From: Candidatus Falkowbacteria bacterium
GTDB taxonomy: Bacteria > Patescibacteriota > Patescibacteriia > Patescibacteriales > GWE2-39-37
Reading direction: 5' to 3'
Assembly: GCA_013336275.1 (NCBI GenBank)
Contig: JAAXUA010000005.1
Coordinates: 13,863-77,862, forward strand
DNA length: 64,000 nt
Shown: positions 1,870 through 37,534 of the stretch, piece after piece
Layout of the letters: each line of letters opens with the position of its first letter
Numbering within the stretch: position 1 is the stretch's first letter
The notes under the pieces: model-generated
What the model was told of the DNA's origin: nothing
Databases searched by the model: none
Seen by the model: the letters and a program-made list of their open reading frames with translations, nothing else
Made by a program: the position numbers and the translations under genes

Positions 1870-3219
1870 TTACGACTTGAGCAAGGCGATGACAGCTTCC
1901 TGCGTCAGGGTTTGCTGTTCGCCGGTTTCGAGGTTCTTGACAGTCAGGTTCTTCTCTGCGAATTCGGTCTCGCCAGCGATGATGACGTACTGGAATTTCT
2001 TCTTGTTGGCGTATTTCATCTGCGCTTTGAGGGAGAGCGGTTCGAGGAAGATTTCAGTGTTGATGCCTTCTTGGCGGAGCGCGGTAGCGAGCTCCAGGTA
2101 ATCTGCTATCCTGTCCTGGTCCATCGTGGTGACGAGCACCTTGGCGACGGTCGCCGGTCCGGCAGTAAGGATATCAGCCTTCAGCAAGCGGTCGAGCAGC
2201 CTGGTCAGGCCGATCGAGATGCCGACGCCAGGGAGCTTCTTGTCGGTGAAGTGGCTGGCCAGGTTTTCGTAGCGTCCGCCGGAGCAGATGCTGCCGATTC
2301 CCGGGTGGTCCTTGAGTACCGTCTCATAAACGGTGCCGGTGTAGTAGCCGAGTCCGCGAGCGATGCGCAGGTCGATGACCAAGTAGTCATCGGGTACGCC
2401 GAAGCGTTTGACGTTCTCGTAGACGCTGCGCAGCTCGGTGACACCTTCGAGAAAAAGCGCGTTGGTTTCCATCCGTTCCAGCCGGTCCAAGAGCTCGTCG
2501 TTGCCGCAGTCGGAAGAGATGACGCTCATCAGCTCGCTGATGCGTTCAGGCGCCATGCCCGTAACATCCTCGATGCCGCTGACGACTCGTCCGGTGCCGA
2601 TCTTCTCCATCTTGTCGATGAGGGTGAGTACGGCTGCGATCTTGTCGTCCGAGATGCCGTAGTGCTGGCAAAGGCCTTGGAGGACCTTGCGGTTGTTCAG
2701 GCGGATGGCGAACTTGCCGATGTTGACCTCGCGGAAAACCTGGTAGATGATGCTGGGGATTTCCGCATCAGTCATGAGGCTCAGTTCACCGTCGCCGATA
2801 ACGTCGATGTCGCACTGGTAGAATTCCCGGAAACGGCCGGATTGCGGACGTTCGCCGCGCCAGACCTTCTGGATCTGGTAGCGGCGGAAAGGGAAGGCCA
2901 GTTCGTTGTAGTGCTGGGCGACGTAGCGGGCCAGCGGGACGGTAAGATCGAAATGCAGGGCAAAACCGGTTTCGGGAGATTCACCCTCTTCGGCCGAGAG
3001 ACGGCTTAAGGCGTAAATTTCCTTCTCGTCCCCGCCCTTCGAGGTCAGGGTCTCAGCCCTTTCGATGGCAGGGGTTTCGATCGGTACGAAGCCGAACTTC
3101 TCGTAGCTGGCCCGGATGATGTCAAGCAGCCTGTTTTCCAGGATCTTGACGCTGGGGAGCCACTCGGGGAAGCCGCTGATCGCTTGCGGCCTGACGATTT
3201 TTACTTCGGATGTTTTCAT
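1870..3219 (-). CDS. hisS: histidyl-tRNA synthetase
   Basis: 449 aa; class II aaRS/HisRS signatures FREFYQCDIDVIG, IARGLGYYTGTVYE, C-terminal anticodon-binding region; GGAG upstream of ATG. Confidence 0.95.
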   Translation of the reverse strand: MKTSEVKIVRPQAISGFPEWLPSVKILENRLLDIIRASYEKFGFVPIETPAIERAETLTSKGGDEKEIYALSRLSAEEGESPETGFALHFDLTVPLARYVAQHYNELAFPFRRYQIQKVWRGERPQSGRFREFYQCDIDVIGDGELSLMTDAEIPSIIYQVFREVNIGKFAIRLNNRKVLQGLCQHYGISDDKIAAVLTLIDKMEKIGTGRVVSGIEDVTGMAPERISELMSVISSDCGNDELLDRLERMETNALFLEGVTELRSVYENVKRFGVPDDYLVIDLRIARGLGYYTGTVYETVLKDHPGIGSICSGGRYENLASHFTDKKLPGVGISIGLTRLLDRLLKADILTAGPATVAKVLVTTMDQDRIADYLELATALRQEGINTEIFLEPLSLKAQMKYANKKKFQYVIIAGETEFAEKNLTVKNLETGEQQTLTQEAVIALLKS

Positions 3220-3248: not shown

Positions 3249-3956
3249 CTACAGTTTAGGGTAGTCGTCGAGGTTCAGCTTTTCGCGCATCAGGTCGGCG
3301 GCAGCATAGCCGGTAGAAACTTTGCCGAACGGCATGCAACGGGAACGTACTTCAGCTTTACCCCAGACGAAGGGCAAACCGTCGGCAACGCCGCCGGTGC
3401 CTGCTATGGGGATGATGTACTTGACCGTTTCGCCGCTCTTGATGATCGCCTCGTTGGTCTTGAGGATGTGGGCGGATTCGATCAGCGTGCCTGCACCTCC
3501 GCCATAGACTATGACGCCGTCGAGCAGGCTCGTGAACATCGGACTCTCGTCACCCCAACGGCTTTCGCCGACCAGCGGCTCAACGCAGATGGAGATATCG
3601 AGAAATTCGAGCGGCAACGCGTGTTTGCGGCCGACGAGCGGGTATATCCCGATCGTCTTGAGACCGAGTTCCTTCGCTTTGAGCGTCGCCGTCTTGGGTA
3701 CGCCCCATTTGGTTCCGCCGGTCAGGATAGCAATCTGGAAATTCTGCAGCTTCATCATGGCTTCGCCGATAATCCGCTCCTCCATCCGGCTGGCGAGTTC
3801 CTGGTACTGTTTCTGCAAGGGGTCATCCTGGGACAATCCTGCTATTTCCGCGTCTGCGCCGCCGGAAAAGGCGACAATCTTGTGCAAGCCGTTGTCTGAC
3901 ATGAATTTGCGGATCGCTCGGGAATAATCTTCTTTGCCGCTGACTACGATATGCAT
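3249..3956 (-). CDS. LOG/SLOG-family Rossmann-fold nucleotide-binding protein (lysine-decarboxylase-like family)
   Basis: Motifs ILTGGTKWGVP and VIVYGGGAGTLIE (PGGxGTxxE-type LOG motif). Start moved to internal ATG 3956 because AAGGAGGTG lies 4 nt upstream; the track ORF extends to 4040. Confidence 0.65.
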   Translation of the reverse strand: MHIVVSGKEDYSRAIRKFMSDNGLHKIVAFSGGADAEIAGLSQDDPLQKQYQELASRMEERIIGEAMMKLQNFQIAILTGGTKWGVPKTATLKAKELGLKTIGIYPLVGRKHALPLEFLDISICVEPLVGESRWGDESPMFTSLLDGVIVYGGGAGTLIESAHILKTNEAIIKSGETVKYIIPIAGTGGVADGLPFVWGKAEVRSRCMPFGKVSTGYAAADLMREKLNLDDYPKL

Positions 3957-4173
3957 GGCCCACCTCCTTTCGTTTGTCTGACTGTCAGTCTGCTTGGGGT
4001 TTTGAAAAGATCCTTTACAAAAATAAAGCTTGTAAATCATTTAATCTTGGCAGATATAGGCCTCGCTGTCAAGCTGGCTGCCCTAGACCGTTCAATGCCC
4101 CGAGAGGTTGACAAATACCCAGTAAATGTTATCTTATAAAAAATTCGCACTTTAGAAAAGGAGGAAGGGGAAG

Positions 4174-4719
4174 ATGGAGCAAAAATTGGAGATTCTCAGT
4201 TTGGCAGGAAATCAAGTGGACAACACGATTCTTGATAAATGCGCTAACCTGTATTGCGGCATCTGGAGGGAGCCGCCTTGGAACGAAGATTTCTGGAAAC
4301 CTCAGGAAGTGAAGCAGGATATAATCCGGGATTCAGCGAAAGAAGCCGGTGACTGCCTGATCGCCGTTATCGGCACGGACAGAGTGGCCGGCTTCACTTG
4401 GGGCTACATGGCGCCGGACAATTATCTGGACGAGATTTCAGGGTCCGACTATTTCACTTCCTCGGGAAAGTTCACCGAAACGACGTTCTATGTCGATGAG
4501 CTGGGAGTCGATGCCGGTTGCCGCGGCCACGGCGTAGGCAAGCGGTTGACGAGAGCTCTCATCGACCATGCCGCGATCAGCGGAGCACGTTCCTTGGTTT
4601 TGCGGACCGACGAAAAGGCCTTCGCTGCCAGGGCGCTTTACGCCAAGCTCGGCTTCGTCGAAATCCCGGTGCGCGATGCGAAGTACCCGACCAGGACGTA
4701 TTGGCATCTTGCAATTTAA
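4174..4719 (+). CDS. GNAT family N-acetyltransferase
   Basis: 181 aa; acetyl-CoA motif A VDELGVDAGCRGHGVGKRL; AGGAGGAAGGGG upstream of ATG. Confidence 0.8.
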   Translation: MEQKLEILSLAGNQVDNTILDKCANLYCGIWREPPWNEDFWKPQEVKQDIIRDSAKEAGDCLIAVIGTDRVAGFTWGYMAPDNYLDEISGSDYFTSSGKFTETTFYVDELGVDAGCRGHGVGKRLTRALIDHAAISGARSLVLRTDEKAFAARALYAKLGFVEIPVRDAKYPTRTYWHLAI

Positions 4720-5486: not shown

Positions 5487-5509
5487 CCGCATTTAGCGGC
5501 TGTTTTTTT
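5476..5509. terminator. bidirectional terminator between convergent genes
   Basis: AGCCGC (5485-5490)/GCGGCT (5496-5501) hairpin flanked by an A-run on the left and a T-run on the right; overlaps both stop codons. Confidence 0.6.
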
Positions 5510-6053
5510 CTCTGATGAGATCGATTATCTTTTCTACTGCCTCAGTCTCGTTGGCTGCTTCGGCTTTAAGCCTCTTCCGGTCATCGAAGAACTGCCCGGC
5601 CATCTTGTCTGCCCAGCCGCCGGTGCCTTCGATCACTACGATCGGTATGTCGAGCTGATAGGCGATCAGCATCTCGGTCATAGTGCCGGAGCCGCCGGAA
5701 ACGGCGATGATGCCGTCGCAGGAATTGACCAGGACGAATTCGCGGCCGCCGCCCCTTTCGAGACCGCTGGAGATTATGACGTCGGTATCGCCGGCTTCGT
5801 CCCAGATGTCCTTGCCTTTGCCATAAGTGACACCGACAGTCAGGCCGTCATGTTTCTTGGCCCCCCTGGCTGCAGCCGTCGAGAGGGAATCATAATCCTT
5901 CTCGGCACCATAAACCAGGATGTTGCCGCTTTTGGCCACGTCCTCGCCGATCCTCATGGCGATAGCCTCGAGCTTCTCGGAGTAATTCAGGTCGGCCGCC
6001 GAACCCATGACGCCGATTTGGAGTTTTCTATTTTTCATAAGCTTGTTATTCAT
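5493..6053 (-). CDS. TIGR00725-type LOG/SLOG family protein
   Basis: 186 aa; IGVMGSA N-terminal Rossmann strand and IAVSGGSGTMTE (GGxGTxxE) motif. Confidence 0.75.
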   Translation of the reverse strand: MNNKLMKNRKLQIGVMGSAADLNYSEKLEAIAMRIGEDVAKSGNILVYGAEKDYDSLSTAAARGAKKHDGLTVGVTYGKGKDIWDEAGDTDVIISSGLERGGGREFVLVNSCDGIIAVSGGSGTMTEMLIAYQLDIPIVVIEGTGGWADKMAGQFFDDRKRLKAEAANETEAVEKIIDLIREKNSR

Positions 6054-7377: not shown

Positions 7378-8508
7378 ATGAAATTTTCCAAGCGTTCGAC
7401 CCACCTGGTCTCATCTTCGCTGTATGTCTTTTTCCGCAAGGTCAAGGAACAAGAGGCGCTGGGCAAGAAGATAATCTCTTTGGGCGTCGGCGAACCGTAT
7501 CAGGACACGCCCGAGCCGATCAAAGAGGCTGGCATCGCCGCCATCAAAGCTAACAAGACCCGCTACAATACGGCGTCAGGCTCTATGGCTTTGCGCCAAG
7601 CCCTGGCCAAAAAATATGATGTTGCGCCCGAACAGGTGGCGCTGGCCTCCGGGGCTAAGCCGTTTCTCGGCTCGATCATGTGGTCAGTAATCGACGAGGG
7701 GGACATCATCTTCATGGCCGGACCGGTCTATCCGCCGTTCTTCCAGATCGCTGAATCGAACGGCGCCCGCGTCGTTTTGATCGACACGAAACCGAACGGC
7801 TTCAAGATGACCTTGGCGGCTCTGGAAAAGGCCTACCTGGACGCTGAGCTCAGCGGCCACGCCGCCCACATCCTGCTTAACTCACCCAACAATCCGACAG
7901 GCGTTGCCTACGATCGGGCGGAGCTGGAAAAGATCGTCAGCTTCTGCCGCGAGCGCAACATGACGATCATCTCCGACGAGTGCTATAACAATTTCAGCGC
8001 CGACCCGGATTTTACGGTCAGGCAGCTTGACGACCAGGCGATCATCATCAACTCTTTTTCCAAGACCTATGCCATGACCGGCTGGCGCTTGGGTTACGCT
8101 ATCATGCCCCAGGATTTGGCTGTCGTGGTTGGGCGCTATCTGGACAATTATCTCGGTTGCGCTTCGTCGATCGCCGATGCGGCCGCCATGACGGCGCTCG
8201 AGACGGAGCCGCTGGCTGACTTTACCGAACAGCGGGATATGATTCATACCTGGCTCGACAAGCACGGCATACCCTATGCTCCATCGACCGGCGGCATCTT
8301 CGTTTTTCCTGATTTTGCGCCCATCATGGCCAAGAAGGGCATCGCCGATTCGACCGGTCTGGCCTCCTATTTTTTGGAGCAGGCTGAGGTGGCCGCCACT
8401 CCAGGCTCTGCCTTCGGCGAGGCTTATGACACCCACTTGCGCCTGTCGTATTGTATCCGGCCTGAAGAGCTAAGATTAGCCTTAGAGAGGTTGGACGCGG
8501 TCATCTGA
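7378..8508 (+). CDS. class I/II pyridoxal-phosphate aminotransferase (aspartate/aromatic type)
   Basis: 376 aa; LNSPNNPTGVAY and NSFSKTYAMTGWRLGY (PLP-lysine motif). Confidence 0.9.
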   Translation: MKFSKRSTHLVSSSLYVFFRKVKEQEALGKKIISLGVGEPYQDTPEPIKEAGIAAIKANKTRYNTASGSMALRQALAKKYDVAPEQVALASGAKPFLGSIMWSVIDEGDIIFMAGPVYPPFFQIAESNGARVVLIDTKPNGFKMTLAALEKAYLDAELSGHAAHILLNSPNNPTGVAYDRAELEKIVSFCRERNMTIISDECYNNFSADPDFTVRQLDDQAIIINSFSKTYAMTGWRLGYAIMPQDLAVVVGRYLDNYLGCASSIADAAAMTALETEPLADFTEQRDMIHTWLDKHGIPYAPSTGGIFVFPDFAPIMAKKGIADSTGLASYFLEQAEVAATPGSAFGEAYDTHLRLSYCIRPEELRLALERLDAVI

Positions 8509-8566: not shown

Positions 8567-8594
8567 TTGCAAATTTCTCAAAATATGCTATAGT
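8567..8594 (+). promoter_or_regulatory. sigma70-like promoter
   Basis: TTGCAA (8567-8572), 16-nt spacer, TATAGT (8589-8594). Confidence 0.5.
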
Positions 8595-8600
8595 TATCCA

Positions 8601-8764
8601 CATATGATTAAGACAGCACAAAAAACTAATTTCTGGTTTAGCTTCTATTTTATGAGCTCCCGGCGGAGATCAGTTTTTTGTGGTGTTTTGACTAAGTAGA
8701 AAGTTAAAGCTCATCACAGGGAAAACAAACTGACCTCCGGAAACGGAGGTCTTTTTGTTTTATC
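8601..8764 (+). ncRNA. candidate structured leader or small RNA (promoter-to-terminator unit, about 160 nt); also contains a near-leaderless 31-codon ORF 8604..8699
   Basis: Long stem between CAGCACAAAAAACTAAT and ATCAGTTTTTTGTGGTG; terminator GACCTCCG-GAAA-CGGAGGTC (8732-8751) followed by TTTTTGTTTT. Confidence 0.35.
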
Positions 8765-8814
8765 GGCGTTCTTTTTAAAAAAATACTTCGGGATAGATAT
8801 GAAAGGAGGATTGT

Positions 8815-9051
8815 ATGGCAATCTTGCAGGCGGCAGTTCAAAGCTACACGGATTATTCAAGTGATGTCCACGAATTGCTGCAGTTCTGGGTGCCGGGCTG
8901 CGGCCTTGATGGTGGCGGTCTGGACGAGGACGAATGTCCGAATTGCTTCGGCGGAAATATCGGGACGATTTTCAGCGAATCAGGCGCGCAGCTCCAGTGT
9001 ACTGGCTGCGGCGCAACAGGCGCGGTGTTCGCACCGACGACAGGGAGGTAA
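8815..9051 (+). CDS. zinc-ribbon microprotein (78 aa), paralog of 9194..9433
   Basis: AAGGAGG 5 nt upstream; CPNC...CTGC four-Cys motif; shares W..PG.G-CPxC-x3-IGT...CxxC..G pattern with the third gene. Confidence 0.6.
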   Translation: MAILQAAVQSYTDYSSDVHELLQFWVPGCGLDGGGLDEDECPNCFGGNIGTIFSESGAQLQCTGCGATGAVFAPTTGR

Positions 9052-9053
9052 CC

Positions 9054-9197
9054 ATGGAAAGGTTGGATAATGATCAGTTAAGGACGGTTATGGCCCTTAG
9101 TCTGGCTGGCGGCAATCGTTCTAAGGCTGCGCAAGCCGAAGCGATACTCATCATTCGTGAGCAAGATCAACAAGACCAGCAAGGAGGCGGCAAATGA
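9054..9197 (+). CDS. 47-aa hypothetical protein (MERLDNDQLRTVMALSLAGGNRSKAAQAEAILIIREQDQQDQQGGGK)
   Basis: GGGAGG 5 nt upstream of ATG 9054, 2 nt after the previous stop; its stop overlaps the next start (ATGA at 9194-9197). Confidence 0.45.
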   Translation: MERLDNDQLRTVMALSLAGGNRSKAAQAEAILIIREQDQQDQQGGGK

Positions 9198-9433
9198 AAG
9201 GTCCCTATTTCGTAACAAACCCTGGATTGATGCCGCCGGTTGCGCACATCGCAGCGATGCCCGTTCCGGAAAAGATGTTCGAGAACTGGCGCAGCTGGTC
9301 GCCTGGAGACGGCGTCTGTCCGGCGTGCAACGGCACCCATATCGGAACCGAAGAAGTTATCAGCGGTGATTTGCGAGGCGAACGTCTCAGATGCAAGGAC
9401 TGCAACGCAGTCGGCGGAGCGAGCGTTTTCTGA
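9194..9433 (+). CDS. zinc-ribbon microprotein (79 aa), paralog of 8815..9051
   Basis: GGAGG 6 nt upstream; CPAC...CKDC four-Cys motif. Confidence 0.6.
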   Translation: MKGPYFVTNPGLMPPVAHIAAMPVPEKMFENWRSWSPGDGVCPACNGTHIGTEEVISGDLRGERLRCKDCNAVGGASVF

Positions 9434-9446
9434 GCAAGCAACACAG

Positions 9447-9470
9447 GCGGGGCTGAACATTCAGCCCCGC
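9447..9470 (+). terminator. GC-rich hairpin after the microprotein operon
   Basis: GCGGGGCTGA-ACAT-TCAGCCCCGC, 10-bp perfect stem; no clear U-tract. Confidence 0.4.
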
Positions 9471-9540
9471 TCCAATTATCCAAAATAGATTTACATATGT
9501 TATGCTATTGCAGAGGGAGATTATTCGTGTATAAAATATT

Positions 9541-9795
9541 ATGAACAATGGACTGGAAGGCTGGCGCAAGGAAATCAACGAACTTGACCGCCAGCTGATC
9601 AGGACTCTGGAGGCACGCTTCCGGGTCGTTGAAAAGATCGCCGGCTACAAGCGGACCAATGGTTTACCGGTCCGCGACGAGAAGCGCGAGCAGGAACTGT
9701 TAGCCTTGCTGGCGGAAGACACCAGCCTAAGCCCGCAATTCTTAAGGGACTTGTACGCGGTCATCTTTGCTAACTCATATCTAATCGAACAATGA
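9541..9795 (+). CDS. chorismate mutase (AroQ class)
   Basis: 84 aa; WRKEINELDRQLIRTLEARFRVVEKIAGYK, typical AroQ helix pattern. Confidence 0.85.
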   Translation: MNNGLEGWRKEINELDRQLIRTLEARFRVVEKIAGYKRTNGLPVRDEKREQELLALLAEDTSLSPQFLRDLYAVIFANSYLIEQ

Positions 9796-10385
9796 ATATG
9801 TCAAAAATCACTATCGGCGTTTCGGGAGGGGTCGGCAGCTTCTCCGAAGAAGCGGCTAACTACCATTGCCAGAAGGAAGGCATCAAGGATTACGAATTGA
9901 AGTATTTGGTGAGCGTCGAGAACGTCTTATCCGCCTTGGATAAGGGCGAAATCGATGAGGGGGTTTTTCCGATAGAGAATTCTAATGGCGGCATCGTCAT
10001 TGAGGCGGTGTATGCCATGGCCAAACACCAGTTCCAGATCAAGAAGATGTTCGAGATCGATATCAGGCACAATCTCTTGGCCCGCCGCGGCCTGAACCCT
10101 GGGGATATCGCGGCCATCGCCTCGCATCAGCAGGCGCTGAAGCAGTGCCGCATGTACCTCAAGCGCAAGTGGCCGGAAGTCGAGCTGGTCGAGTACAAGG
10201 ACACGGCCGAGGCGGCGCGCGACATCGCAGAAGGGCGGCTGCCAGCCACGACGGCAGTAATCGCCAACCGCGTCTGCGCCGAGCTGTATGATCTGGAAAT
10301 CCTGGAAGAAGGCATCCAGGACCTGAAATTCAATTTTACGACGTTTATCGTCGCCACGACTGCGGGCGAGCAGTCGGCTCTCTGA
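9792..10385 (+). CDS. pheA: prephenate dehydratase (catalytic domain only, no ACT domain)
   Basis: 197 aa; GVGSFSEEAA, PIENSNGGIV, TTFIVAT motifs; ATGA overlap with chorismate mutase. Confidence 0.85.
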   Translation: MNMSKITIGVSGGVGSFSEEAANYHCQKEGIKDYELKYLVSVENVLSALDKGEIDEGVFPIENSNGGIVIEAVYAMAKHQFQIKKMFEIDIRHNLLARRGLNPGDIAAIASHQQALKQCRMYLKRKWPEVELVEYKDTAEAARDIAEGRLPATTAVIANRVCAELYDLEILEEGIQDLKFNFTTFIVATTAGEQSAL

Positions 10386-10463: not shown

Positions 10464-11192
10464 ATGAAAAAAATAGCAATCATCGGCTTCGGGCGTTTCG
10501 GTGAGCTCTTAGCTGACATTTTGAAGAATCACGGACAAGTTCATATCATGAGCCAAAGCGGCCATTCCGGCGCCTTTCCGCTGATCGGCAAACAGCAGCT
10601 CGGGGAGATGGACTGGGTGATACCGGCCGTGCCGATCTCCGCACTGGAACAGACCTTGCAAGACATCGCTTCCGAGCTTAAGCCTGACGCCTTGGTGATG
10701 GACGTCTGCTCGGTCAAGGTGAAGCCGTGCGAATGGCTGTTCAAACATGTTCCGGCCGGAGTCGAGATTATCGGTTCACATCCCATGTTCGGGCCTGATA
10801 GCGCCAAGAACGGCCTCAAAGGTTTGCAAGTGGTCTTGTGCCCGTTGCGTGCCGCCGAGTCGACCGTCGAGGAGGTGCGTGAAGTGTTCAGAAAGCTGGA
10901 GTTGAAGATTATCGAAACGTCCGCCGACGAGCACGACCGCCAAGCTGCGAATTGTCTGGCCATGGTCCACTTTTTGGGCAGAGGCCTGGATGAGATGAAG
11001 TTGGAAAAGCAGGAGATAACCACCATGGGCTTCGAGCGCCTCTTGGCGGTCAACGAGACTGTCGCCAATGACACCTGGCAGCTGTTTTTGGACATGCAGT
11101 ATTATAATCCGTATGCTGCCGTCGCCCGCAAGGCGCTTGTGTCAGCGCTTGAAACTGTCGAGGCTCAAATTCTGGCGGACAAAAGGGAATAG
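10464..11192 (+). CDS. tyrA: prephenate dehydrogenase
   Basis: 242 aa; IAIIGFGRFG NAD fold, DVCSVK, GSHPMFGP motifs. Confidence 0.85.
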   Translation: MKKIAIIGFGRFGELLADILKNHGQVHIMSQSGHSGAFPLIGKQQLGEMDWVIPAVPISALEQTLQDIASELKPDALVMDVCSVKVKPCEWLFKHVPAGVEIIGSHPMFGPDSAKNGLKGLQVVLCPLRAAESTVEEVREVFRKLELKIIETSADEHDRQAANCLAMVHFLGRGLDEMKLEKQEITTMGFERLLAVNETVANDTWQLFLDMQYYNPYAAVARKALVSALETVEAQILADKRE

Positions 11193-12606: not shown

Positions 12607-12677
12607 CGGGGTATCGTATAGTGGCAGTACGCGTGGCTGGGGGTCATGTAGCTGCGGTTCGATTCCGCATACCCCGA
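12607..12677 (+). tRNA. tRNA-Pro (anticodon GGG)
   Basis: Cloverleaf folded by hand: acceptor CGGGGTA/TACCCCG, anticodon loop CTGGGGG, T-arm TGCGG-TTCGATT-CCGCA, discriminator A; CCA not encoded. Confidence 0.9.
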
Positions 12678-12688
12678 CAGGGAAATGT

Positions 12689-36458: not shown

Positions 36459-36785
36459 ATGAAAATCAAGAAAAACGACAAAGTAATGATCCTGGCCGGC
36501 AAGGATAACGGCAAGACCGGCAAGGTCCTGCAGGTATTCCCGGTAAGGCAGCGCGTCAGCGTTGAAGGCTTGAATCTTTTGATCAAGCATTTGCGCCCAC
36601 GTCGCGAAGGCGAGAAAGGCCAGCGCATCGAGTTTCCAGCCCCATTGAACATGTCCAATGTCATGCTGGTCTGCACCAAGTGCGGCAAGCCGACCCGAGT
36701 CGCCTATAAGGTCACCGAAGGCGCTGATGGCGCCAAGAAGACCAAGGTGCGAGTATGTAAGAAATGTAAACAAGTGATCGATTAA
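36459..36785 (+). CDS. rplX: 50S ribosomal protein L24
   Basis: MKIKKNDKVMILAGKDNGKTGKVLQV (KOW motif). Confidence 0.94.
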   Translation: MKIKKNDKVMILAGKDNGKTGKVLQVFPVRQRVSVEGLNLLIKHLRPRREGEKGQRIEFPAPLNMSNVMLVCTKCGKPTRVAYKVTEGADGAKKTKVRVCKKCKQVID

Positions 36786-37348: not shown

Positions 37349-37534
37349 ATGGCGACTAAAGCACAAATCGCAAAGTCTAACAGAAAGCCGAAATTTAGCA
37401 CCAGGGTTGTCCGTCGTTGCTGGCGATGTGGTCGAAACCATGGGTACATCCGTGATTTCAACCTCTGCCGCATCTGTTTTCGCGAACTAGCCACTGCTGG
37501 CGAACTTCCAGGGGTGACGAAATCAAGCTGGTAA
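37349..37534 (+). CDS. rpsZ: 30S ribosomal protein S14, zinc-binding type Z
   Basis: 61 aa; [23 protein letters not shown] (CxxC...CxxC). Confidence 0.94.

Follow-up and report, generated by a model that had tools for sequence, protein, structure and literature searches.

An aromatic-codon attenuator predicted upstream of a zinc-ribbon microprotein operon in a Candidatus Falkowbacteria genome

In a stretch of 64,000 nucleotides from a genome labelled Candidatus Falkowbacteria (hereafter the window, meaning the whole stretch that was analysed), three genes for very small proteins, called here A, B and C, stand directly upstream of genes of phenylalanine and tyrosine (Phe/Tyr) biosynthesis. We report that they are preceded by a previously undescribed RNA switch, which was missed in a preliminary description of the locus. 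This leader is very probably a classic ribosome-mediated attenuator with 1:2 / 2:3 / 3:4 hairpin logic, an assignment reached by computation, and its position upstream makes A-B-C most likely a microprotein operon induced by starvation for aromatic amino acids. The explanation of the whole locus that we favour, with moderate confidence, is that the translationally coupled genes A-B-C form the first unit behind an aromatic attenuator and encode probable regulators of the Phe/Tyr branch.

The leader and its predicted attenuator fold

Upstream of gene A, a consensus scan detected a promoter-like site at 8567-8594 (+), consisting of TTGCAA, a 16-nt spacer and TATAGT, with TG upstream of the -10 hexamer. 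This site is nearly invariant in four loci, and the wider family of leaders described below has TATAAT-TATCCACAG at the same place. It is followed by a leader open reading frame (ORF) at 8604-8699 (+), which begins MIKTAQKTNFWFSFYF and reads MIKTAQKTNFWFSFYFMSSRRRSVFCGVLTK in full; it has 31 codons and its stop codon is at 8697-8699. As the ATG lies 10 nt after the -10 hexamer, the leader ORF is probably leaderless or nearly so. A distance of 10-12 nt between the two was noted in the window (8598-8606) and in the related loci L004, L016 and L017; other members of the family have an inserted 30-nt hairpin and an AU-rich stretch, without a Shine-Dalgarno (SD) site. Codons 10-16 of the leader ORF (8631-8651, +) form the regulatory run F-W-F-S-F-Y-F, at which the ribosome is proposed to stall. 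The stretch reaching from the -35 hexamer to the T-run is nearly identical in the window and in loci L001-L003, and the leader ORF carries zero synonymous change, though the proportion of synonymous differences (pS) in the neighbouring genes is 0.5-0.8.

The segments expected of an attenuator can be located one after another. Segment 1 (a; 8608-8635, +) is the 5' strand of the leader hairpin and would hold segment 2 as long as no ribosome is stalled (z = -5.9 for the minimum free energy (MFE) fold); the RNAalifold consensus includes the core of helix 1:2, one pair of which covaries (CG 15, UA 7, UG 4). Segment 2 (b; 8664-8691, +) can pair with segment 1 or with segment 3, and in its 5' part (GGAGATCAG) it mimics the terminator 3' arm. 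Segment 3 (c; 8700-8739, +), the predicted antiterminator partner of segment 2, contains a near-invariant CTCAY..AGGGAAAAC motif and the terminator 5' arm. The intrinsic terminator (8722-8761, +) has the stem GACCTCCG-gaaa-CGGAGGTC at 8732-8751, followed by TTTTTGTTTT at 8752-8761; an A-tract in front of the stem (8722-8729) can pair with the T-run.

The antiterminator was tested by folding the nascent RNA with segment 1 masked, as it would be by a stalled ribosome, and with the terminator 3' arm omitted. Under this constraint, the MFE structure was one long hairpin of segment 2 with segment 3 in six loci from three lineages, at -26 to -32 kcal/mol (-29.2 kcal/mol in the window). The leaders of L004 and L005 have a different sequence and the same architecture: their peptides read MSKTIQKTYFYFSFSFWFTQRPVFCGVFD and MRQITQNMYWFFNSFFMKKLVLCVS, and their aromatic runs are YFYFSFSFWF and YWFFNSFF, respectively, where the window has FWFSFYF. 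The folding z-scores of these three leaders range from -5.9 to -6.5. No second copy of the aromatic leader was found within the 64-kb window.

The regulation that we propose follows the classic scheme. A transcript starting from the promoter-like site at 8567-8594 would carry the 31-codon leader with its FWFSFYF run, and this leader would be translated. With charged Phe-, Tyr- and Trp-tRNA plentiful, the ribosome would reach the stop codon at 8697-8699 and cover segment 2, allowing the terminator at 8732-8761 to form and transcription to stop. With charged aromatic tRNA scarce, the ribosome would stall in the run, and segment 2 would be freed from segment 1. The free segment 2 would then pair with segment 3, including the terminator 5' arm, and RNA polymerase would enter A-B-C. 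The consensus scan found no promoter-like site between the terminator and gene A.

Further material for this assignment comes from the relatives of the leader. A DNA pattern made from its core (TTTTTTGTGGTGTTTT ... CTCAY ... AGGGAAAAC) matched 34 further metagenome loci (L009-L042), and the leader RNA core is present in at least 39 loci. Nearly all unique full-length copies (26 of 28) encode M-x-K-T-I-Q-K-T, then a stretch rich in F, Y and W; R-R-A-V-F-C-G-V-L-T and the stop codon follow. Segment 2 lies 64, 67, 70, 73 or 76 nt from the ATG, values that are all congruent modulo 3 (25/25 unique sequences), and the variable stretch is 57% aromatic in frame versus 15% and 26% in the other frames (116 F, 34 Y and 17 W). 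Because the frame is kept and aromatic residues are enriched in it, these data are direct evidence that the leader ORF is translated and that its aromatic codons are selected.

The RNA itself is also under constraint. RNAalifold recovered helix 1:2, a small middle hairpin and the terminator across the family, with compensatory changes in 10 of 32 pairs; in the terminator stem, four of the six pairs covary. Segment 2, in its 5' part, covaries with the terminator 5' arm: duplexes of the two have a mean of -15.8 kcal/mol for cognate combinations versus -12.9 kcal/mol for non-cognate ones, and for the most divergent leaders the cognate terminator arm is among the best 0-5%. The family covariance model, R1, scores the window leader at 155 bits and detects the L005 leader, which had been left out of model building, at 28.7 bits (E 3e-4). 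In Rfam, no family reached its gathering score in the leader; the best was Phe_leader (RF01859), with 24 bits and E 0.23, versus 55. Thus, the attenuator RNA is new, widespread, very well conserved and absent from Rfam.

The three genes and the place they keep

The preliminary description had seen in this locus a translationally coupled operon of three ORFs of 78, 47 and 79 aa, with two paralogous four-Cys zinc ribbons around a small third protein, and this picture is supported. All three ORFs are present on the forward strand: gene A at 8815-9051 (78 aa; W-x-P-G ... E-C-P-x-C-F-G-G-N-I-x-T ... C-x-x-C-G-x-x-G), which is the hypothetical protein HGA34_04550 at NCBI; gene B at 9054-9197 (47 aa; conserved motif L-A-G-G-N-x-x-K-A-x-Q-A); and gene C at 9194-9433 (79 aa; F-x-x-W-x-x-W ... 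C-P-x-C ... C-x-x-C). Each has an SD-like site in front of it, AAGGAGG at 8803-8809 for A (5 nt to the ATG), GGGAGG at 9043-9048 for B (5 nt) and AAGGAGG at 9181-9187 for C (6 nt); 2 nt separate the stop of A from the start of B, and B and C overlap by ATGA. The paralogy of A and C is apparent from BLASTP (E 2e-5, 33% identity) and from hhalign comparison of the family profiles (95.6% probability, E 1.3e-8). Their four-Cys pattern (CPxC...CxxC) is invariant in all homologues, the residues being C41, C44, C62 and C65 in A and C42, C45, C67 and C70 in C, and both proteins probably bind zinc through them. A fifth Cys of A, in a PGC motif, is not conserved among homologues.

Two features of the earlier picture have to be corrected. 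The locus had been called more GC-rich than its neighbours; its GC content is 0.52-0.56, against 0.55-0.62 in the flanking coding sequence, and GC falls below the level of the locus only in AT-rich intergenic spacers. A GC-rich island is ruled out by these values, as GC is no higher than in the flanking coding sequence. Gene B had been characterized as Gln/Asp-rich, a description that applies to a tail lacking conservation; what the homologues of B have in common is L-x(3)-L-A-G-G-N-x(2)-K-A-x-Q-A. The SD site of gene C lies in the DNA that encodes the C-terminal QGG of B.

Two checks had been suggested for the operon, namely a search for homologues with the same Cys pattern and synteny and an analysis of purifying selection, and both gave positive results. 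The ratio of nonsynonymous to synonymous substitution (dN/dS, Nei-Gojobori) is 0.07-0.27 across the three genes, whose synonymous divergence per site is 0.3-0.8. Gene A has a ratio of 0.14-0.19, gene B one of 0.07-0.15 and gene C one of 0.18-0.27, with 0.05 for the neighbouring aminotransferase, 0.11 for chorismate mutase (CM) and 0.22 for prephenate dehydratase (PDT). The pair L001-L002 is unsaturated (dS 0.40-0.56). The 2-nt gap, the gene order, the ATGA overlap and the SD sites are kept in L001-L003, and the overlap is kept in L004 and L005 as well. Since dN/dS, gap, overlap, SD sites and Cys residues are all conserved, A, B and C are almost certainly real genes under purifying selection, as far as comparison of sequences can tell.

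The contrary view would be that A-B-C are not genes and that these 620 nt are a long 5' untranslated region of the operon of CM, PDT and prephenate dehydrogenase (PDH), which the attenuator would control directly. The attenuator does lie upstream of CM-PDT-PDH, and the hairpin that follows C has no U-tract in the window genome. However, the low dN/dS at the divergence given above, the conserved starts, SD sites and gene overlaps, the invariant Cys residues and the existence of distant homologues at 38-44% identity refute this view as to coding, and we regard it as hardly credible. Read-through of the attenuator into CM is possible, and it fits the explanation that we favour.

The reach of the cassette was explored by a word-indexed search of A against 5.8 billion clusters and by an exhaustive HMMER search of 1.84 billion cluster representatives with a profile of C, the exhaustive search being made for C only. 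In the word-indexed search of 5.8 billion clusters, A alone matched only itself, and C had two relatives at about 71% identity; an alignment search with A added two more A relatives. These belong to loci L001, L002 and L003 and one contig without DNA, which have one layout: aminotransferase-leader-A-B-C-chorismate mutase-prephenate dehydratase-prephenate dehydrogenase. Genes A, B and C all recur in this order in the three further sequenced loci. Among the 1.84 billion representatives, the C profile found only two credible distant homologues, P0007 (80 aa, E 5.5e-12) and P0009 (59 aa, E 4.6e-5); two other matches were rejected as long repeat proteins. P0007, in L004, stands directly after a 103-aa A homologue, which it overlaps by ATGA, and directly before CM-PDT-PDH-aminotransferase. 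P0009, in L005-L007, comes after a 60-aa B homologue (again with an ATGA overlap) and an unrelated 99-aa ORF, and directly before PDT-PDH; one of these three loci is GCA_037146995.1, 'MAG: bacterium isolate ELA025'. Both P0007 and P0009 are also located behind an aromatic leader. An alignment scan with C over one genome per GTDB species matched one genome, the same ELA025, and an alignment scan of metagenomes with A gave no match.

The family of A/C zinc ribbons is thus very rare, and in every lineage its place is before genes of the Phe/Tyr branch. The preliminary description had called the locus sandwiched between unrelated aromatic-amino-acid genes. These genes do adjoin it; the word 'unrelated' does not stand, as the cassette lies behind an aromatic leader and its place before CM/PDT/PDH is kept in three divergent lineages. 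It is on account of the aromatic-codon leader and this conserved position that we tie the cassette to aromatic amino-acid status.

A homologue of B was also encountered in L013, between two unrelated small ORFs and again ending in an ATGA overlap. Several candidate extensions of the family were rejected. For a fusion of B to the N-terminus of the 103-aa A homologue of L004 (a 'Rosetta stone'), hhalign found no similarity, the 99-aa first gene of the L005 cassette showed no similarity to A, of which it had been considered a divergent form, and the small ORFs flanking the B homologue in L013 are not an A/C-like paralogous pair (BLASTP E 1.7). The 99-aa protein of L005 and the second of the small L013 ORFs have no similarity to each other. 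Helical microproteins that resembled B by eye in L022, L026, L030 and L035 gave E values of 0.3 or worse with a hidden Markov model.

The surroundings of the cassette in the window are as follows. Upstream lies a class I/II aminotransferase gene (7378-8508, +; Pfam Aminotran_1_2, E 3e-55), kept beside the cassette in L001 and L003; downstream follow the genes for CM (9541-9795, +; Pfam CM_2), PDT without ACT (9792-10385, +; Pfam PDT) and PDH (10464-11192, +; Pfam PDH_N). After C, there is a GC-rich hairpin (9446-9471, +; -22.9 kcal/mol, z = -5.0), and a hairpin of different sequence occurs at the same place in L001-L005. The hairpin of the window either closes the A-B-C transcription unit or acts in processing or stability. 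Next comes a possible promoter of the CM operon (9479-9506, +; TCCAAA, 16 nt, TGtTATGCT), recognized by eye and below the threshold of the scan; this block is conserved in L001-L003 and resembles an extended -10 promoter. Because of the hairpin and the conserved promoter-like block, A-B-C may be a separate unit and CM-PDT-PDH may have a promoter of their own. A mini-ORF whose TGA stop overlaps the ATG of CM was observed at 9528-9545 in the window (GTG TAT AAA ATA TTA TGA), and in L002 (~985-999) and L003 (~4488-4502) the corresponding sequence is ATG ACA ATA GCA TGA; this ORF of 4-5 codons may be translationally coupled to CM.

What the cassette may do

Sequence and structure searches place A, B and C in no described family. 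For all three, no model of Pfam or NCBIfam reached its curated cut-off and PADLOC gave no match; for C only, a sequence profile search of the PDB and a Foldseek search against the PDB returned nothing significant. The preliminary description had stated that the architecture was not recognised, which stands for the proteins; it had overlooked the main feature of the locus, the attenuator upstream. In the AlphaFold2 (AF2) model of C, residues 40-79 form a three-stranded sheet (strands 50-57, 60-67 and 72-78) with a predicted local distance difference test (pLDDT) score of 72-86, and the N-terminal half, which includes the invariant F-x-x-W-x-x-W segment, is of lower confidence. A scan for CxxC..CxxC pairs also brought up two other ORFs of the window, at 36459-36785 and 37349-37534, which resemble by eye ribosomal protein L24 with a C-terminal extension and zinc-type S14, respectively.

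The insignificant matches invite one particular interpretation, in which A and C are nucleic-acid-binding zinc ribbons acting in a feed-forward loop on the Phe/Tyr operon. Their targets might be the hairpin or the promoter block between C and CM, the leader RNA, or a tRNA. The top Foldseek matches of C are the zinc ribbons of Pol I subunit A12.2 and of NrdR, which are associated with nucleic acids (E ~0.6-0.7), profile searches gave sub-threshold matches to S27e, Elf1 and transposase zinc ribbons, and both a hairpin and a sequence block are conserved between C and CM. However, none of these matches is significant: S27e (PF01667), for example, scored 20.7 bits versus a cut-off of 24.5, and 18.1 bits versus 70 in NCBIfam. 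In addition, A and C are not notably basic, and zinc ribbons are equally often protein-protein modules. We therefore consider a nucleic-acid-binding role rather doubtful.

Another clue comes from the genomic context. PDT is 189-197 aa long and has no ACT in all three lineages that bear the cassette, i.e., in the window, L004 (4666-5256) and L005 (10236-10805), and for this reason the adjacent Phe/Tyr enzymes are the most likely targets. In L010 (437-1309) and L018 (162-995), PDT has ACT, and the leader stands directly before it, with no B- or C-type genes. From this context we tentatively suggest that A, B and C might be co-produced and interact, serving as small regulatory or adaptor subunits for the Phe/Tyr branch during aromatic shortage.

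The cargo of the leader at other loci bears on this suggestion in two ways. On the one hand, the leader is found directly before PDT with ACT in L010 and L018 and directly before DAHP synthase in L011/L014, L012 and L031 (L019 has a 107-aa ORF separating the leader from DAHP synthase). Because the same leader fronts prephenate dehydratase and DAHP synthase, it can be regarded as an attenuator of the aromatic pathway. On the other hand, at most other loci it is followed by one to three small ORFs from several unrelated orphan families, including a second zinc-ribbon family, a small family common to L026, L028 and L031, one DsrC-like protein and other small proteins. As the same leader drives unrelated orphan microproteins, its cargo need not act on Phe/Tyr enzymes.

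These loci occupy a conserved chromosomal slot, composed of the leader, a highly variable cargo and a tRNA-Pro gene. The tRNA-Pro(GGG) gene, at 12607-12678 (+) in the window, is the conserved downstream anchor of the slot, and it has a same-strand counterpart downstream in 19 of the 22 related loci that were scanned: L003 (8807-8878), L010, L013, L017-L019, L021-L023, L028, L029, L031-L033, L035, L036, L038, L039 and L041. The aromatic leader is retained beside tRNA-Pro(GGG) even where the available sequence shows no aromatic gene. Upstream, a common order begins with a metallo-beta-lactamase/ComEC-like gene, which is followed by a response-regulator receiver of about 125 aa, by either NDK or a protein of 358 aa, and then by the aromatic leader (L014, L019, L022, L024, L029, L031, L033, L036 and L041); in L029, the available stretch contains no lactamase-like gene, and LeuA lies between NDK and the leader. 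The upstream genes of the window differ from this order.

A few further observations concern individual loci. The RNA core occurs without an aromatic leader ORF in L027 (3735-3902, +; 139 bits with R1) and in L042 (9126-9276, -; 72 bits with R1), whose cargo comprises a 444-aa protein and then a CTP-synthase-like gene. In L015, a SLOG-like protein of 154 aa (132-593, -) comes after a 47-aa zinc-ribbon ORF behind an aromatic leader, and proteins of the SLOG cluster-4 family are encoded upstream in the window (3249-4040 and 5493-6053, both -).

Leaders for other amino acids were recognized among weaker covariance-model matches, which were interpreted by eye. A Val-rich leader in L009 (1146-1290) is followed by a 119-aa orphan ORF, an Ile-rich one in L019 (3185-3040, -) by an orphan ORF of about 105 aa, and a Leu-rich one in L035 (2809-2950) by a 61-aa CxxC..CxxC protein; another Leu-rich leader, in L029 (9669-9540, -), precedes LeuA. 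An attenuator of similar scaffold, with a leader of the Leu/Ile/Val type, also stands before LeuA in L006 (3290-3410). Just upstream of this LeuA leader, L005-L007 have an operon of three small ORFs (2580-3219), encoding a Lys-rich protein of 67 aa, a 66-aa protein with CxxC..CxxC and one of 75-86 aa, and ending in a terminator. The window has a second attenuator on the reverse strand (1405-1575, -), with an Asn/Asp-rich leader ORF at ~1540-1454 (MSMSYFRQLNNDNNNGNNDCRRFWFERS) and a terminator at ~1432-1405 (CCGGCTC-aaaac-GAGTCGG-TTTTTTT). It lies upstream of a gene for an FAD-binding oxidoreductase, which starts at 1328 (-) and runs off the window. The same Asn/Asp arrangement is present in L005 (MQVISLNINNNDNGNDNYRRF), where the protein has DAO and Mqo Pfam matches.

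As several types of regulatory codons occur on one scaffold, leader-peptide attenuation appears to be widely used in these genomes, and orphan microproteins appear to be a recurrent cargo of it. A-B-C may then be one case of an undescribed, Patescibacteria-like regulatory layer, in which leaders on a shared scaffold sense single amino acids and switch on orphan microproteins as starvation effectors. Such a layer would comprise aromatic, Leu, Ile, Val and Asn/Asp versions, several of the microproteins would be zinc ribbons, and they would act besides or instead of enzymes. We find this generalization plausible, though short of probable.

Taken further, the same data could mean that A-B-C are starvation effectors unrelated to the Phe/Tyr enzymes. 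The slot between leader and tRNA-Pro(GGG) would be a variable cargo site and the attenuators general amino-acid sensors, with targets such as translation, uptake, proteolysis, growth arrest or host interaction. This would account for a leader that drives several unrelated microprotein families, for the lack of an aromatic gene between leader and tRNA-Pro at most such loci, and for the Val-, Ile- and Leu-rich leaders of the same scaffold that precede orphan small ORFs, one of them for the 61-aa CxxC..CxxC protein. However, many of the other loci are short contigs, beyond which aromatic genes could lie, and A/C-type zinc ribbons and the B+C pair occur only beside CM/PDT/PDH, in three divergent lineages. 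Because of this restriction we argue for a specific link to the Phe/Tyr pathway, and a general starvation effector seems possible to us without being likely.

The explanation proposed at the outset, a coupled operon of probable Phe/Tyr-branch regulators behind an aromatic attenuator, also has to be weighed against several facts that speak against it. The promoter is a consensus match only, and the attenuator may leave the CM-PDT-PDH enzymes uncontrolled in the window. With no significant match of A, B or C in Pfam, NCBIfam or PADLOC, their function is deduced from context; the AF2 model of A has the same strand pattern as that of C, but its pLDDT of 44 makes it unusable. The correlation between ACT-less PDT and the cassette is one of three lineages versus two. 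Finally, the cargo of this leader at many loci consists of unrelated orphan microproteins, and the available sequence there contains no aromatic gene.

Significance and comparison with known systems

Leader-peptide attenuation is textbook biology in Proteobacteria, and members of the candidate phyla radiation are thought to be poor in biosynthesis and in known regulation. Among the papers covered by full-text searches, none was found to describe leader-peptide attenuation for Patescibacteria, the candidate phyla radiation or Parcubacteria. An attenuator with orphan zinc-ribbon microproteins as its immediate cargo is a new arrangement. It turns three orphan 'hypothetical proteins' into candidate regulators with a defined inducing signal, the shortage of aromatic aminoacyl-tRNA, and if such cassettes are general, they would represent a new class of amino-acid-specific starvation effectors in reduced genomes.

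At the level of the proteins, A and C can be compared with stand-alone C4 zinc ribbons (TFIIS/A12.2 type, the N-terminal domain of NrdR, ribosomal protein S27e), with which they share two CxxC knuckles and, as far as the AF2 model of C goes, a predicted three-stranded sheet. The known ribbons differ in that the N-terminal F-x-x-W-x-x-W / W-x-P-G segment is specific to the A/C family.

A second comparison is with anti-TRAP (RtpA/YczA) of Bacillus subtilis, a small zinc-binding protein which is upregulated by uncharged tRNA-Trp and acts on a regulator of Trp synthesis (PMC11255114, PMC4027176). The cassette would resemble it in combining a small zinc-binding protein, induction linked to aminoacyl-tRNA and protein-level control of an aromatic pathway. 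The anti-TRAP operon leader also includes a leader peptide. The window differs in having three genes (two paralogues and a small third one), a Phe/Tyr neighbourhood and a pure leader-peptide attenuator. It might even be supposed that A, C or both belong to anti-TRAP as divergent members and counteract a TRAP-like RNA-binding attenuation protein: both are small proteins with predicted zinc binding by Cys, encoded behind an attenuator with an aromatic codon run, and A weakly matches Pfam Anti-TRAP (PF15777; E 0.066, 13.7 bits) and NCBIfam RtpA (NF058604; 12.3 bits). These scores are far under the cut-offs of 32 and 65 bits, however, and C has no match; the DnaJ-like CxxCxGxG motif is only partly present. 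Moreover, no TRAP (MtrB-like) gene was noticed among the annotated ORFs of the 64-kb window, whose annotation is partial, Rfam reported no T-box, and the genes sit with Phe/Tyr rather than Trp genes. Homology to anti-TRAP is thus disfavoured as very improbable, and the likeness is best treated as an analogy.

In Sinorhizobium meliloti, trpL is a ribosome-dependent attenuator from which the sRNA rnTrpL is released, and both this RNA and the peptide peTrpL have functions of their own (PMC7298713, PMC7968998). A trans-acting leader RNA or peptide would be a possible reason why the present leader is far more conserved than the genes behind it and is kept at loci that show no aromatic gene. The window leader differs from trpL in that there is no evidence of a trans-acting role for it, and the two are unrelated in sequence and lineage.

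The nearest counterparts of the leader are the pheL-pheA and pheST attenuators of Gammaproteobacteria, which control Phe biosynthesis through an ORF with Phe codons, alternative hairpins and an intrinsic terminator (PMC3082878). The likeness to Phe_leader (RF01859) extends to the short ORF with Phe codons, the 1:2, 2:3 and 3:4 hairpins and the intrinsic terminator. In contrast, the sequence family is a different one, the codon run of the window is a mixed one of F, Y and W, the scaffold is highly conserved and much longer, containing the motifs TTTTTTGTGGTGTTTT and CTCACTAGGGAAAAC, and the genome is one labelled Candidatus Falkowbacteria at NCBI, a phylum that NCBI taxonomy assigns to the Patescibacteria/Parcubacteria group. 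The first genes regulated would, moreover, encode microproteins and not enzymes, which suggests that the first products controlled by an attenuator can be microproteins without an assigned function.

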